DNA of 64,000 nucleotides from an archaeon (GTDB lineage: Archaea > Nanobdellota > Nanobdellia > Pacearchaeales > UBA284), in the NCBI GenBank assembly GCA_020343435.1, contig CP070794.1, positions 239,558 through 303,557 on the forward strand, read 5' to 3'. The stretch's first letter is position 1, and each line of letters starts with the position of its first letter. This document shows, piece by piece, positions 2,679 through 59,821 of this stretch. A program made the position numbers and the translations under genes. The notes below the pieces were generated by a model. That model worked only from the letters and a program-made list of their open reading frames with translations, made no database searches and was not told the DNA's origin.

Positions 2679-2725
2679 TTTATAAATCCTAAATTCCCTT
2701 TTTCAAAGAGGTGATCAGACCTCAG
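2679..2725 (+). promoter_or_regulatory. TATA box plus conserved 18-nt 5' module GAGGTGATCAGACCTCAG (copy 1 of 2)
   Basis: TTTATAAA is at 2679-2686 and the motif at 2708-2725, starting 29 nt after the TATA start (the predicted TSS). GAGGT/ACCTC can form a hairpin. GAGGTGATC is complementary to the 16S 3' end seen at 61419-61430. The second copy is at 47445-47462. Confidence 0.5.
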
Positions 2726-3271
2726 ACCGTTTCTGAGATTGAGAAAATGGCAAAAGTAATGTTTTATTCTCCAGATGAATATGAATACCTCCAATTAGTT
2801 GATTTCTTTAGAAGAACAGACAGAGACTATTCTCCCCCAACTTCACAAATAATGGGAGGAATTGAAGAATACCTCCATCACTGGATTCTTCAAGAAGGAG
2901 AAGCAACAATAGCAAAAACAAGGGAAGGAATTATTGGAAGTTTTGGTTGGTGGAATGTTGGTGATTTATACTGGGCAGATTGGATTGGTGTTTTAGAAAG
3001 ATTTAGAGGAGAAGGACTACATATAGAACTTATTAAACATGCCTTAACAAAAAGACCAAGAACAGTTAATGGAATTGCATATAATAGAACTTGCCAAGGG
3101 AATTCAAAAACTCCAAAATTAATGGAAGGCCTTGGAGCTGAAAGAATAAATCCAGAACAAATTCCAAACCCAATAATGAAAACAGTGCCCCCAATTCAAG
3201 GCAGAGAAAGTTTATGGTATAAATTACAATTAAGCAAGGCTCATGAAAGATTGGGGATTCAATCACAATAA
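2711..3271 (+). CDS. GNAT-family N-acetyltransferase-like protein (R/G/W-rich class)
   Basis: VLERFRGEGLHIELIKHAL resembles GNAT motif A (R-x-x-G-x-G). The start is either GTG 2711 inside the conserved 5' module or ATG 2747. Confidence 0.5.
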   Translation: MIRPQTVSEIEKMAKVMFYSPDEYEYLQLVDFFRRTDRDYSPPTSQIMGGIEEYLHHWILQEGEATIAKTREGIIGSFGWWNVGDLYWADWIGVLERFRGEGLHIELIKHALTKRPRTVNGIAYNRTCQGNSKTPKLMEGLGAERINPEQIPNPIMKTVPPIQGRESLWYKLQLSKAHERLGIQSQ

Positions 3272-3302
3272 TCCTTTTAAATTTGAGAATGATGGTTAAA
3301 AG

Positions 3303-3659
3303 ATGTTAATACCTGTGATAGAAAAAGATTGGTACAGGATAGACGCAGGATTTAGAAGAAGGACTAATAAGCAAGGAGTTAGGAAAGAAAAAAGAGAATT
3401 TTACGAGTTTATGGTTGGTCCTTCAATTAGATATCTTCCTGCAAGAACAGCTTTTGGACCAAGGCCTTATCATCCATGTGCTACACGAATGGGACAGGTA
3501 GCTAATCCCATGGTTTTTCATAGTTCTTCTTTTTTGGGAAACAGGTTAGAAGGTAGAGCTGAAGTAGCCATAATAGGGAGACCACCACTCCTCAAAGATG
3601 TTATGGATAGGATTAAAGAGTTTTATGCTAAACTTGGTTGGGAAGAAATTCTTGGCTAA
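3303..3659 (+). CDS. Hypothetical protein (R/G/P-rich ORFan class)
   Basis: 118-codon ORF. TTTTAAAT sits 28 nt upstream of the ATG within a 19-nt promoter identical to that of the 20824 gene. No family recognised. Confidence 0.5.
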   Translation: MLIPVIEKDWYRIDAGFRRRTNKQGVRKEKREFYEFMVGPSIRYLPARTAFGPRPYHPCATRMGQVANPMVFHSSSFLGNRLEGRAEVAIIGRPPLLKDVMDRIKEFYAKLGWEEILG

Positions 3660-3669
3660 ACCTTTTTCT

Positions 3670-4374
3670 TTATTCAGTCCTAATCTCAACACTTTTAAAG
3701 AGAGGTTTTAATTCTAGTTGTAATGCTTTAAGTTCATCAACAGAAGTTTTTTTCAATTTTAAGAAAGCAGGATCATGGCAGTTCTGAGGTAAAAATTGTT
3801 GTAAAACAAATTTCTTATTAGCACCATTTAATTGTAAATAAGCAGCAATTTTAAGTAAAGATTCTCTATCAACAACTTTAGGAACAACTGTTGTTCTAAA
3901 CTCATAATCTTTCAGAGTCTTAATCAACTCTATACTTTTTTTAACATTTCCAGTAACATCCCCATCACATACCTTATTATAATTATTAAAATTAGTTTTT
4001 ATATCCATAGCAACATAATCTACTAATTTATTCTTAATCAAAGAAAATAATATCTCAGGATGACTTCCATTTGTATCTAGTTTAACTTTAAATCCCATCT
4101 CTTTAAGTTCTGATATTAATAATGGTAACTCAGCATAAAGAGTTGGTTCTCCACCAGAAATTACAACCCCATCAATATATCCTTTATTTTTTTTAAGATG
4201 TTCAAATACTTCTTCTTTAGGATATGTTTTTAATTCTGATCTTTTTTCTTGGGATATTAGATGACTGTTATGACAAAAACCACATTTAAAATTACAGTTA
4301 GAAAGAAAGATTACTGCAGCTGCTTTTCCTGGATAATCAATTAATGTAAATTTCTCAAAACCTTTTATCTCCAT
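3670..4374 (-). CDS. nrdG: Anaerobic ribonucleotide reductase activating protein (radical SAM)
   Basis: CNFKCGFCHN CxxxCxxC motif and GGEPTL. Lies immediately downstream of nrdD. Confidence 0.9.
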   Translation of the reverse strand: MEIKGFEKFTLIDYPGKAAAVIFLSNCNFKCGFCHNSHLISQEKRSELKTYPKEEVFEHLKKNKGYIDGVVISGGEPTLYAELPLLISELKEMGFKVKLDTNGSHPEILFSLIKNKLVDYVAMDIKTNFNNYNKVCDGDVTGNVKKSIELIKTLKDYEFRTTVVPKVVDRESLLKIAAYLQLNGANKKFVLQQFLPQNCHDPAFLKLKKTSVDELKALQLELKPLFKSVEIRTE

Positions 4375-4382
4375 ATTTCCCC

Positions 4383-58478: not shown

Positions 58479-58559
58479 ATTCTATGAAGAGAAAACAGAT
58501 TTAAATAACTTTTTAAATAAAAGAATCTTATATAAGATACCTAAAAAGGAGGAAACTAA

Positions 58560-58964
58560 ATGAGATCAAGAGGTGGTTTTGTTTTGAATCTTATTGGAGC
58601 TATATTAGTATTACTTATAGCAGTTATAGCAATGATAGCATTAGCAGCTTCAAGAGAGATTGCAGGAATGGTTGGAATTCTAGGAACAACAACAATGAAT
58701 CTTGTATGGATTTTTTTAGTAATCCATCTTGTAATTGGTGTCTTGATGATACTAAGCGCTATATGGATGAATAATGATAGAAAAGTTAAAGCAGGAGCAT
58801 TAATGGGATTGATAGTAAGTATCATAGGTATTGTTGTTGGTGCTGGTGTATTCATAGGGCCAGTGTTAGGAATCATCGGAAGTGCCATAGGATTAGGAAA
58901 AGCAGCAAGACAACCTGAGAAAGTGATTGCAAAAACAAGACCAAGACGAAGAAAACGAAGATAA
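58560..58964 (+). CDS. Small polytopic membrane protein with a poly-basic C-terminus
   Basis: Three to four TM segments and a tail KTRPRRRKRR. A strong AGGAGG SD lies 8 nt upstream of the ATG. Confidence 0.6.
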   Translation: MRSRGGFVLNLIGAILVLLIAVIAMIALAASREIAGMVGILGTTTMNLVWIFLVIHLVIGVLMILSAIWMNNDRKVKAGALMGLIVSIIGIVVGAGVFIGPVLGIIGSAIGLGKAARQPEKVIAKTRPRRRKRR

Positions 58965-58985
58965 TTTTTTCTTTTTCTTTTTTTA
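58965..58985 (+). terminator. Oligo-T terminator
   Basis: ttttttctttttcttttttta directly follows the stop. Confidence 0.4.
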
Positions 58986-59028
58986 ATTCTTTAGAAAGGT
59001 TTATATACTACTTTTGAATGGTGATTTT

Positions 59029-59292
59029 ATGGTATTAGATCAAAGCTTAGCATACGCAATAAAACAAGGGGCAGAATTAGTTGGAAGAATTCAGAAAGAG
59101 GAATTAGATGGAGAGTCTGTTCCTGCAAACCACAGACTTGCATTATGTCAAGATATTGTTAAGTACAGAAGAGAGGGGCATCTTCAAGTATTAAAAGTAA
59201 AAGGAGAGGGTTTGGATATCTGTAGGTATATAATTGATAATATCACAAATAGAGATGAAACAGATTCAACTGAAGGAGGTTTATCTGATTAA
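59029..59292 (+). CDS. Hypothetical protein (ORFan class)
   Basis: TTTATATA at 59000 lies 29 nt upstream of ATG 59029; the track TTG 59014 is less likely. Confidence 0.4.
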   Translation: MVLDQSLAYAIKQGAELVGRIQKEELDGESVPANHRLALCQDIVKYRREGHLQVLKVKGEGLDICRYIIDNITNRDETDSTEGGLSD

Positions 59293-59299
59293 ATAGAAA

Positions 59300-59821
59300 A
59301 TGGGAATATTAGATGGTGTTCGAAAGGTTGGAAATAAAATAAAAGATGGCCTTGGAGATGTTTTAACTACAGAACTATCTCCTCAAGGAATTGCAGCATT
59401 AACCCTTGCTGGTGGGATGACTGCTGGAAGTATTGGTTGTGCTCCAGGAAATCTTGAACACTATACATTTATAGATGAAGATGAGATAATGGATAGAGTG
59501 AGTGTTTTTAATGATCCTGGATTCATTGCTAGCATTCCTCAAGCAGAGATGAGTTTTAGTTTAGGTCACGGTACAGATTGCAAGGGAAATCCTACTTTTG
59601 GGATATCAAGAAACTTTTTTTGGACTTCACAGTGGATATATAGACTAAGTTCTGCAGATTTAGATGACAATGGATATCCTGATATATTATTTTCAACTTG
59701 CAGAGACAGAAATTGTAACAGCCCTTCTTGTAACTATGTCATCTATAACGATGGCCGTAATGAGAATGGAGAACTTACATTTAGAGGACCCGAAGGGATA
59801 TCTTATGCTGTACCAAAATAA
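59300..59821 (+). CDS. Hypothetical protein with a hydrophobic segment and an FG-GAP/VCBS-like Asp-rich loop (ORFan class)
   Basis: GIAALTLAGGMTAGSIGCAPG is the hydrophobic segment. SADLDDNGYPDILFS resembles a D-x-D-x-D-G-x-x-D Ca-binding repeat. Weak call. Confidence 0.45.
   Translation: MGILDGVRKVGNKIKDGLGDVLTTELSPQGIAALTLAGGMTAGSIGCAPGNLEHYTFIDEDEIMDRVSVFNDPGFIASIPQAEMSFSLGHGTDCKGNPTFGISRNFFWTSQWIYRLSSADLDDNGYPDILFSTCRDRNCNSPSCNYVIYNDGRNENGELTFRGPEGISYAVPK

Follow-up and report, generated by a model that had tools for sequence, protein, structure and literature searches.

Introduction

Taxonomically restricted (ORFan) genes of prokaryotes, reportedly described by Daubin and Ochman in 2004, are the closest counterparts of 25 open reading frames (ORFs) in a 64-kb stretch of archaeal contig CP070794.1 (32.1% GC; hereafter the window), which an earlier note, made from the sequence alone, had set apart from their neighbours by their arginine-rich (R-rich) composition. 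Like prokaryotic orphans, these ORFs are short, scattered and without homologues, use fewer optimal codons, have host-like third codon positions and are probably under some selection. Mutation bias is expected to shape orphans more than old genes, and usually to show most in the least conserved genes; here the reverse holds, sharply, the total GC content of the 25 ORFs being about 0.37 against about 0.30 in the other ORFs, with the excess at codon positions 1 and 2 and with less lysine, isoleucine and asparagine (K, I and N) than in the core. In gut species, by comparison, the third-position composition of orphans matches that of the host genome, and orphan GC content matches or undershoots that of the genome (Vakirlis et al. 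2024, PMC11293555).

Integron cassettes are similar in being single, compact, mostly orphan ORFs that lie side by side with upstream expression signals, and three such ORFs are chained in one related locus (L013). Unlike cassettes, the window ORFs come with no integrase domain, no common inverted-repeat family and no attC site, for which the gaps (mostly -42 to about 65 nucleotides, nt) leave no room, and they are dispersed over both strands, mostly with a TATA box of their own. Neither integrase nor transposase is among the Pfam matches of the window ORFs; no ORF carries a reverse transcriptase domain and the window has no long direct repeats, features by which a diversity-generating retroelement would be recognised. 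The hypothetical-protein fraction of DPANN archaea offers another parallel, the window coming from a small-genome, episymbiont-type archaeon with many unannotated genes, but the two-class composition seen here is missing or reversed in many relatives. No description of bimodality of DPANN orphans in R/(R+K), the arginine share of arginine plus lysine, or in GC content at codon positions 1 and 2 (GC1, GC2) was found in the literature searches made. Finally, the amelioration model of Lawrence and Ochman (1997) is said to include a phase in which transferred genes have native-looking third positions and foreign-looking positions 1 and 2; unlike such genes, the ORFs of the window show no age gradient, un-ameliorated member, donor homologues or alanine excess.

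The organism is a Pacearchaeota/Woesearchaeota-type DPANN archaeon with a streamlined, small, AT-rich genome of 648 kb, of which the composition tests cover the 64 kb of the window. Its EF-2 is at most 74% identical to those of GTDB genomes labelled Pacearchaeota, Woesearchaeota or Nanoarchaeota, and all window proteins that were looked up (five ORFans, TBP and MCM) are singletons in a collection of about 15 billion proteins clustered at 90% identity; this is a genuine DPANN genome from a lineage sampled once so far. The 25 flagged ORFs (5,128 residues) are compared below with the 46 other ORFs of the window (13,659 residues) and with about 150 related loci (labelled L006, L008 and so on); use is also made of 40 EF-2-centred loci and 27 MCM-centred metagenome loci. 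On the reading to which we would give a little less than an even chance, the flagged ORFs would be genuine orphan genes, natively transcribed but weakly expressed and subject to fast turnover, and their composition a protein-level property of the class.

A compositionally distinct class of proteins

All 25 ORFs are present as listed in the earlier note, which had put their total at roughly 15 kb; they sum to 15,306 nt (26.8% of the span), the alternative ATG starts named there are real, and its hand counts of lysine and arginine (K31/R6 in TBP, K8/R10 in 34823-35185, K5/R10 in 40335-40616) are exact. Relative to the other ORFs, the flagged set is enriched in arginine (R; 7.51 versus 4.71%), proline (P; 5.81 versus 3.46%), tryptophan (W; 1.17 versus 0.69%), glycine (G; 7.84 versus 5.94%), aspartate (D; 6.16 versus 4.73%) and tyrosine (Y; 3.90 versus 2.99%) and mildly so in threonine and serine (T, S), and it is depleted in lysine (5.99 versus 11.66%), isoleucine (5.25 versus 8.83%), asparagine (3.5 versus 4.3%) and phenylalanine (F; 4.0 versus 5.0%), with alanine (A) at 5.44 versus 5.79%. 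The proposed R/G/P/D/E/W/Y/H-rich, K/I/N-poor signature is thereby borne out except for glutamate (E; log2 ratio +0.04) and histidine (H; log2 ratio -0.07), which are unchanged.

Pooled R/(R+K) is 0.57 in the flagged set and 0.29 in the others, and its histogram peaks twice, at about 0.27 and 0.57, dipping between the peaks at 0.40-0.45, although the preference for a two-component mixture is only modest (difference in Bayesian information criterion of about 6). The shifts in GC1 (0.498 versus 0.412) and GC2 (0.410 versus 0.317) greatly exceed that at the third position (GC3; 0.191 versus 0.162). Within the window, the two classes described in the earlier note are confirmed. The flagged set had been picked partly by composition, and label-blind clustering and Pfam status were used as an independent test: K-means on amino-acid frequencies returns one cluster made up of all 25 flagged ORFs and seven others, membership of which is tied to the absence of a Pfam match (Fisher P=3e-8), as is R/(R+K) itself (Mann-Whitney P=9e-8). 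The class is also hydrophilic, shorter (median 157 versus 254 residues) and less basic than the core (median isoelectric point 7.8 versus 9.6, P=0.002).

A plain shift in GC content would not have produced these proportions. Flagged-to-core residue ratios expected from position-wise base frequencies, worked out by hand, are 1.33 for alanine (observed 0.94), 0.74 for lysine (0.51), about 1.15 for arginine (1.59), 1.33 for tryptophan (1.70), 0.87 for tyrosine (1.30) and 0.99 for aspartate (1.30). Because alanine falls, arginine, tryptophan, tyrosine and aspartate rise above expectation and lysine drops below it, the shift is amino-acid-specific and, as the earlier note had placed it, a matter of the first two codon positions and of the protein. 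The basic N-terminal arms reported for two members, 7245 and 55068, are likewise present. The flagged ORFs are the following.

2711-3271, plus strand: 186 residues, GTG start, pairs with 3303; R/(R+K) 0.57, K+I+N 0.18; no Pfam, PHROG, PADLOC or PDB match
3303-3659, plus strand: 118 residues; R/(R+K) 0.67; TATA-like box at about -30; no Pfam or PHROG match
7245-7664, plus strand: 139 residues, basic N-terminal arm MKKKNRSKWDGRRRPIVSQRRRRS; R/(R+K) 0.63, GC1/2/3 0.53/0.45/0.19; no Pfam or PHROG match
11428-11988, plus strand: 186 residues with the ATG start at 11428, reaches into the start of a PEP-utilizer gene; R/(R+K) 0.46, K+I+N 0.15; no Pfam, PHROG or PADLOC match
20824-21357, plus strand: 177 residues, N-terminal hydrophobic segment at residue 7 (Kyte-Doolittle hydropathy, KD, 1.76); R/(R+K) 0.65; no Pfam or PHROG match
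22302-23387, plus strand: 361 residues, pairs with 23453, singleton (P0002, UCD21197.1); no Pfam, PHROG, PADLOC, NCBIfam or PDB match
23453-24790, plus strand: 445 residues, R-rich; belongs to a fast-evolving family of putative gluzincin metallopeptidases of DPANN archaea that lacks annotation
25472-25816, plus strand: 114 residues, lipobox-like N terminus LLLTSNC; K+I+N 0.16; no Pfam or PHROG match
29727-31151, plus strand: 474 residues, N-terminal signal/anchor, hydrophobic at residue 6 (KD 2.12); no Pfam, PHROG, PADLOC, NCBIfam, PDB or IMG/VR match
34823-35185, minus strand: 120 residues, in the TBP/MCM slot; K8/R10; singleton 90% cluster; slot without an ORF in L008, L010 and L084
36546-37589, plus strand: 347 residues, singleton (P0003); convergent with EF-2, 4-nt overlap sharing stop nucleotides
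40335-40616, minus strand: 93 residues, exactly fills the S12/S7 junction (TAAA, ATG ... ATGA); K5/R10
41692-42138, minus strand: 148 residues, convergent with L15e; R/(R+K) 0.55; no Pfam or PHROG match
46815-47405, plus strand: 196 residues, pairs with 47448; R/(R+K) 0.68; no Pfam, PHROG, PADLOC or NCBIfam match
47448-48716, plus strand: 422 residues; Pfam SEC-C zinc motif at residues 402-419 (E=7e-10); in the PDB, SecA/YchJ tails only
50523-50861, minus strand: 112 residues, convergent, 30-nt overlap with a transglutaminase-like gene; R/(R+K) 0.60; no Pfam or PHROG match
51347-51763, minus strand: 138 residues, convergent, 7-nt overlap with aIF2-beta; GC1 0.55; no Pfam or PHROG match
52578-53180, minus strand: 200 residues, convergent, 42-nt overlap with a DUF424 gene; K+I+N 0.14; no Pfam, PHROG, PADLOC or NCBIfam match
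53675-54010, minus strand: 111 residues, 4-nt overlap, stop nucleotides common with S6e; R/(R+K) 0.73; no Pfam or PHROG match
54045-54944, minus strand: 299 residues, TPR-repeat protein (Pfam TPR_2, E=1.5e-10); R/(R+K) 0.46
55068-55499, plus strand: 143 residues, basic N-terminal arm MGKRRRKTKK; R/(R+K) 0.54; no Pfam or PHROG match
56722-57117, minus strand: 131 residues, 4-nt overlap, stop nucleotides common with aIF2-gamma
57226-57699, plus strand: 157 residues, adjoins the prolipoprotein diacylglyceryl transferase gene (Lgt) convergently; GC1/2/3 0.46/0.43/0.10; TATA at about -30; no Pfam match
59029-59292, plus strand: 87 residues, pairs with 59300; R/(R+K) 0.55; the ATG at 59029 restores TATA spacing
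59300-59821, plus strand: 173 residues, Cys-rich, possible lipobox GSIGC; R/(R+K) 0.62; no Pfam match

Two unflagged ORFs of the R-rich K-means cluster belong to the same class.

1462-2424, plus strand: 320 residues, signal/anchor (KD 3.04); R/(R+K) 0.53; no Pfam match
58560-58964, plus strand: small membrane ORF, 134 residues; R/(R+K) 0.65; sub-threshold DUF4064 match

Native expression signals

That long ORFs need not be genes in this genome is illustrated by an antisense shadow ORF of 195 codons (35273-35860, plus strand) opposite the full TBP gene (35245-35832, minus strand), with a non-coding-like periodicity (GC1/2/3 0.32/0.38/0.22). Spurious ORFs or annotation artefacts are nevertheless effectively refuted as an account of the flagged class, whose GC1/2/3 values are 0.50/0.41/0.19. 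With stops at about 8% of random codons, ORFs of 100-474 codons are not due to chance; the flagged ones span 87-474 codons in 32% GC DNA, have a strong periodicity (G at position 1 0.335, GC3 0.19), are the longest in their regions and face no competing ORF on the opposite strand. They also have native promoters, and their stop codons are dominated by TAA, as in the core.

Among genes with a gap upstream, a TATA-like box at -42 to -24 precedes 16 of 23 flagged ORFs and 19 of 26 core genes, against 6% in the background, with a mode at -27 to -29 in both classes, and several of the misses vanish when downstream ATGs named in the earlier note are used as starts. Stop-start coupling through TAAAATG likewise occurs in both (6/25 flagged, 8/46 others), while other flagged ORFs have ATGA junctions or stop nucleotides common with convergent neighbours; six overlapping convergent stops confirm the sharing of stop nucleotides described before. 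At the level of sequence, the suggested regulatory domestication, by TATA spacing and translational coupling, is upheld. The arrangement is less uniform than a strict single interleaving: the ORFs are spread over 57 kb and form no island, but only 12 stand alone, the other 13 lying in six adjacent groups.

Homologue searches

Pfam has no match for 23 of the 25 flagged ORFs, the exceptions being 54045 (TPR) and 47448 (SEC-C), and finds families for 40 of the 46 others, so the contrast between recognisable K-rich genes and an unrecognised R-rich class is as described. Of the weak exceptions allowed for earlier, TPR and SEC-C are recovered by Pfam; GNAT, proposed for 2711-3271, is not, that ORF having neither a Pfam match below E=0.01 nor a PDB GNAT match below E=5. 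The Pfam GNAT of the window is the K-rich, unflagged ORF 27569-28183. Searches with PHROGs and PADLOC returned nothing but the SEC-C tail and a weak match to a PHROG 'kinase' family (E=0.008), both in 47448; no viral relatives of the flagged ORFs were found in IMG/VR, and PDB sequence searches with five ORFans gave the SEC-C tail only. There is no paralogy among the 25 ORFs.

Four ORFs were taken to very large collections. In a full HMMER search of 1.84 billion representatives with three concatenated ORFs (22302, 23453 and 36546), 22302-23387 and 36546-37589 match only themselves and 23453-24790 has about 43 full-length homologues; a word-indexed search of a 5.8-billion-cluster collection with 29727-31151 alone returned only the self match (JSW08_01525). 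Three of the four are thus singletons, which, together with the lack of homologues in syntenic loci of relatives, supports a lineage-specific accessory set.

These results also bear on the idea that the flagged ORFs are ordinary families missed by profile libraries, their composition being incidental to a loop- and beta-rich, helix-poor class. Recognition of TPR and SEC-C and the placing of 23453-24790 in a family of about 43 members speak for it, as does the rise of G, P, D, S and T with K, I and A low or unchanged, the pattern of helix-poor proteins. But two of the three ORFs in the full HMMER search have no relatives at all, and NCBIfam, which partly recovers K-rich genes missed by Pfam (matches below curated cut-offs for three, of which 24827-25429 is clearly phosphoribosyltransferase-like and 16382 and 45401 are weak), gives only SEC-C-tail matches for the R-rich ORFs tested. 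Moreover, the 23453 copy is far more R-rich than homologues from genomes of equal GC content. Failure of recognition accounts for 23453-24790, but for the class as a whole we consider it decidedly improbable.

Synonymous sites and the origin of the class

The A/T bias of third positions holds for GC3, which has the same range as in the core (0.10-0.26), but not entirely for GC content at four-fold degenerate sites (GC4), which differs between the two sets (0.152 versus 0.086, P=8e-6). Broken down by class, GC4 runs from 0.172 (K-rich genes without a Pfam match) and 0.153 (flagged ORFs) through 0.083 (rest of the core) down to 0.050 (translation genes), and the TTC share of phenylalanine codons is 0.08, 0.13, 0.28 and 0.31, respectively. 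As the flagged GC4 is close to that of the native K-rich genes without a Pfam match, it follows low expression rather than foreignness; compared with these native genes of similar expression, no foreign synonymous usage is seen in either measure. Raised GC4 and lost TTC preference in the flagged set are a signature of weak codon selection.

Core genes compared with their orthologues in relatives show 899 changes from arginine to lysine and 443 in the reverse direction, and AT pressure is active on the core of this genome. A proteome-wide K-to-R pressure in the lineage is rejected, the core moving the opposite way; a mutation bias that has lately turned toward GC is rejected too, because GC3 and GC4 of this genome are the lowest among its relatives. 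Intergenic DNA is 27% GC and four-fold degenerate sites are 5-17% GC, lowest in translation genes; synonymous sites exceed non-coding DNA in AT content, and this points to selection for codons ending in A or U besides mutation bias.

Old transfers from a host, virus or plasmid of higher GC content, with synonymous sites fully drifted to the AT-rich usage of the recipient and positions 1 and 2 slowed by purifying selection, would explain why the ORFs are missing from the same junctions in relatives, why GC1, GC2 and the shares of CGN among arginine and CTN among leucine codons are up and GC4 lies above the core mean, and why genomes differ from one another as if each had its own source. Back-of-envelope rates even allow R/(R+K) of about 0.5 after full amelioration of GC3, given a donor of at least 60% GC. 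A GC-rich donor proteome is, however, expected to contain 9-12% alanine, and alanine is not raised here (5.44 versus 5.79%), although glycine, arginine and proline are. No organism in the collections searched has a homologue of the three singletons, no relatives were found in PHROGs or IMG/VR, and GC4 equals that of native K-rich genes of low expression. Within the class, GC4 does not follow GC1/2 (rho 0.08, P=0.69) and none of the 25 ORFs is un-ameliorated (GC3 0.10-0.26). The slots differ even from those of a relative with 83% identity in MCM, which implies ongoing turnover and should have left recent, GC3-rich arrivals. With alanine not raised, no amelioration gradient and no homologues found, we infer that the orphan class is unlike residual or fading foreign DNA; transfer from a GC-richer partner, one of the explanations first offered, is not borne out and appears rather unlikely.

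Gene junctions in related genomes

None of the flagged ORFs within reach of the comparison is matched by a counterpart in the roughly 150 related loci: as the synteny comparison proposed in the earlier note reveals, the slots are empty or filled by unrelated ORFs. In L008 the genes for S12, S7, EF-2, a kinase, TBP, MCM and an OB-fold protein are contiguous, so 40335, 36546 and 34823 of the window are extra relative to it; the 36546 slot is empty in L008 and holds K-rich ORFs in L010. In 10 of 15 relatives S12 lies directly against S7; in L006, L007, L012 and L013 their junction is occupied by ORFs that are unique and unrelated to one another, and of these four ORFs three are R-richer than the core of their own locus. 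The slot between aIF2-gamma and Lgt, occupied by 56722 in the window, holds a member of the 23453 family in L082. Unrelated genes of the same style recur at identical junctions in other lineages.

In the window, L007, L012 and L088, the orphan ATG stands precisely where the downstream ATG stands in relatives without an insert (TAAA, ATG), and the orphan stop abuts the displaced downstream ATG; at S12/S7, the orphan ATG replaces that of S7 after the TAA-A of S12. L088, the closest relative found (MCM 83% identical), has a 139-residue R-rich, Pfam-less ORF (L088:3253-3711) exactly between the MCM stop (TAAA) and the ATG of the OB-fold gene, whereas the same two genes of the window (32740-32800) are 1-2 nt apart without an ORF between them. 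In the S12/S7 slot of L013 (6140-7200), TAAA(A)ATG links three ORFs (6202-6612, 6615-6764 and 6766-7116) in a chain, and on either side of the third stands the 20-nt direct repeat AAAATGGCAGAAAAAATGAA, which contains the opening five codons of S7. This repeat resembles the footprint of an insertion but is an anecdote. In L012 (11-nt repeat) and L007 (9-nt repeat), too, the slot ORF begins with the first codons of S7.

Native birth or capture at junctions would have DNA inserted just within or ahead of the downstream start codon and a short copy of that start made in the process; the former start and coupling signal would then read the insert as a new ORF, and composition would reflect what survives as a new protein. 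The position of the orphan ATGs, the abutting stops and the chained ORFs and repeats of L013, L012 and L007 speak for it, repeats of at least 12 nt accompanying about 0.5-1.5% of ORFs. Yet flanking repeats are enriched neither around the 25 window ORFs (median 7 versus 7 nt, P=0.65) nor around unique ORFs of the roughly 150 loci, mobile-element ends and target duplications are not enriched around the window ORFs either, and TAAAATG is general to both classes. In no frame is any orphan similar to its neighbours or to the rest of the window, so that origin by duplication is rejected, and intergenic DNA of 27% GC would yield ORFs rich in K, N, I and F. We hold junction birth to be decidedly improbable. 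A broader proposal, doubtful but a shade less so, is that in some Pacearchaeota/Woesearchaeota lineages single-gene units are gained without an integrase, exactly at stop-start junctions and downstream of standard promoters, even inside the S12-S7-EF2 operon, and come from a distinct gene pool or from gene birth, to form a second, fast-turnover proteome with an equilibrium of its own beside the AT-eroded core. If it were true, the 20-nt duplication of the S7 start in L013 would be a footprint of the insertion step.

Genomes differ in how far their unique ORFs share this composition. Across the 40 EF-2-centred loci, unique and shared ORFs differ in R/(R+K) by amounts that vary strongly from locus to locus (variance of z 3.1, P=1.6e-10), unique ORFs being clearly R-richer in L034, L013, L007 and L049 and clearly the opposite in L008, L017 and L010; the 27 MCM-centred loci show a weaker heterogeneity (P=0.04). 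The R-rich-orphan effect is lineage-specific, and the window is an extreme form of it. A few diverged R-rich families (24-46% identity) stay R-rich across genomes, as in L026, L061, L064 and L054 (24-32% identity, R/(R+K) 0.55-0.59), which speaks for R-richness being maintained rather than transient.

A putative metallopeptidase and candidate exported proteins

The family of 23453-24790 has homologues of 21-35% identity, and in an alignment of 36 members H247, E248, H252 and E284 are invariant. AlphaFold2 with the family alignment yields a model of high confidence (predicted local distance difference test, pLDDT, 93.8); for 40335-40616, prediction from the single sequence only gave an uninformative pLDDT of 38. 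Foldseek relates the 23453 model best to 3u24 (an uncharacterised lipoprotein), the Pyrococcus M32 carboxypeptidase 1k9x and ACE/ACE2, all marginal (E about 1e-3, template modelling score 0.3-0.4), as are the matches to the M32, M2 and M3 folds generally, and no PDB chain matches at the sequence level. With M32 carboxypeptidases and ACE gluzincins the model appears to share an all-helical two-lobe fold and a His-Glu...His motif followed by a downstream Glu; it differs from them in lacking a PDB sequence match and in its motif, HEFGGH (residues 247-252), in place of the HExxH of the other 35 aligned members. The predicted structure thus points to a member of a putative metallopeptidase family with an M32/ACE-like fold, in which the one-residue insertion in the predicted zinc motif may have left an altered or inactive site. 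Members of the family are too divergent for K/R changes within it to be polarised.

Surface factors were among the roles first considered for the class. As secreted, surface or host-delivered factors of an episymbiont, these proteins would have a composition tuned to the outside of a basic, K-rich cytoplasm, and the lower isoelectric point of the class is in keeping with that. Protein-binding hot spots are biased to W, R and Y, which the enrichment seen here resembles. A crude hydropathy scan (KD cut-off 1.6) finds N-terminal signal or anchor segments in 20824 and 29727, as well as in the unflagged 1462; judged by these termini, 20824-21357 would be membrane-bound or secreted and 29727-31151 probably extracellular. 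The lipobox-like N termini of 25472 and 59300, which could be substrates of the bacterial-type Lgt encoded in the window (57702-58478), were picked out by eye and fall below the cut-off, and the other 21 ORFs have no segment above it, nor is a secretion or delivery signal known in them. Only two clear and two borderline export-type N termini are present among the 25, and export would not explain why the unique ORFs are K-rich in relatives that live in the same way; as a general explanation it is very improbable.

Discussion

On the reading favoured here, that of genuine native orphans, such ORFs would arrive singly or in twos where genes already meet, either with a standard promoter in front of them or precisely where a stop is coupled to a start, and would turn over quickly between related lineages. 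Old, recognisable proteins would carry the R-to-K and similar replacements that AT pressure has accumulated, and the orphans would stand at another amino-acid equilibrium, with more R, W, Y, D, T, G and P, less K, I, N and F and no change in A, held by selection on protein function in what may be mostly soluble, hydrophilic, non-enzymatic proteins, possibly engaged in binding or interaction. As the cause of the class composition we favour selection on function, with an old common unsampled source as its main rival and gene gain targeted to junctions as a minority reading. A constraint that would shield the class from AT drift, as proposed at the outset, is, as a candidate, the reading left standing by the data.

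Several observations weigh against it. Three of the 25 ORFs are not orphans in the strict sense (23453 with about 43 homologues, 54045 with its TPR and 47448 with its SEC-C tail), and the searches of large collections cover four of the 25 (22302, 23453, 29727 and 36546). The 23453 copy has an R/(R+K) of 0.56, against 0.36-0.41 in its homologues from genomes of equal GC content. In many relatives (for example L008, L010 and L017) unique ORFs are K-richer than the core; this variation among genomes is easier to reconcile with a shared source than with a functional constraint that acts everywhere. The idea that faster-evolving DPANN proteins are generally R-richer is rejected (rho -0.03). CGN makes up 12.5% of arginine codons in the flagged set against 5%, and CTN 40% of leucine codons against 27%, a rise that GC-richer ancestry predicts as well; these values are compatible with either relaxed codon selection or such ancestry.

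If selection does hold the composition, R/(R+K) and GC1/GC2 set against GC3 would provide a handle on a distinct, possibly interaction-related proteome of uncultured symbionts; if composition reflects origin instead, it would point to an unsampled gene source or to a mechanism of gene gain in streamlined archaeal genomes. Either way, 'hypothetical proteins' become a testable class, and in DPANN archaea and other ultra-small symbionts a large share of the coding capacity that still lacks an explanation consists of orphans.

Other features of the window

An archaeal 16S-tRNA-23S operon lies at the end of the window, which contains four tRNA genes, two of them with introns. The tRNA genes at 29534-29644 and 61492-61591 (100-111 nt), the latter sited in the 16S-23S spacer, are both found by Rfam and both missed by ARAGORN, and probably contain introns. 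Methionyl-tRNA synthetase (86-1008) is split or frameshifted, its C-terminal part (86-682, running off the window start) overlapping by 4 nt a separate tRNA-binding domain (679-1008). Besides the bacterial-type Lgt, genes of bacterial type include the NrdR repressor beside NrdD and its activase (3670-7033).

Among the relatives, the EF-2 match extends over 2.7-3.7 kb in L006, L009, L013, L019, L036, L037, L040, L054, L059, L071 and L073, compared with 2.15 kb in the window, which suggests inteins or other insertions in these 11 loci. L008 and L010 have the longest synteny with the window and high identity in MCM (76-77%), TBP (85%) and S12/S7 (72-75%); their EF-2 is merely 62-63% identical, and other genomes reach 71-74% without synteny, a discordance in the history of EF-2.

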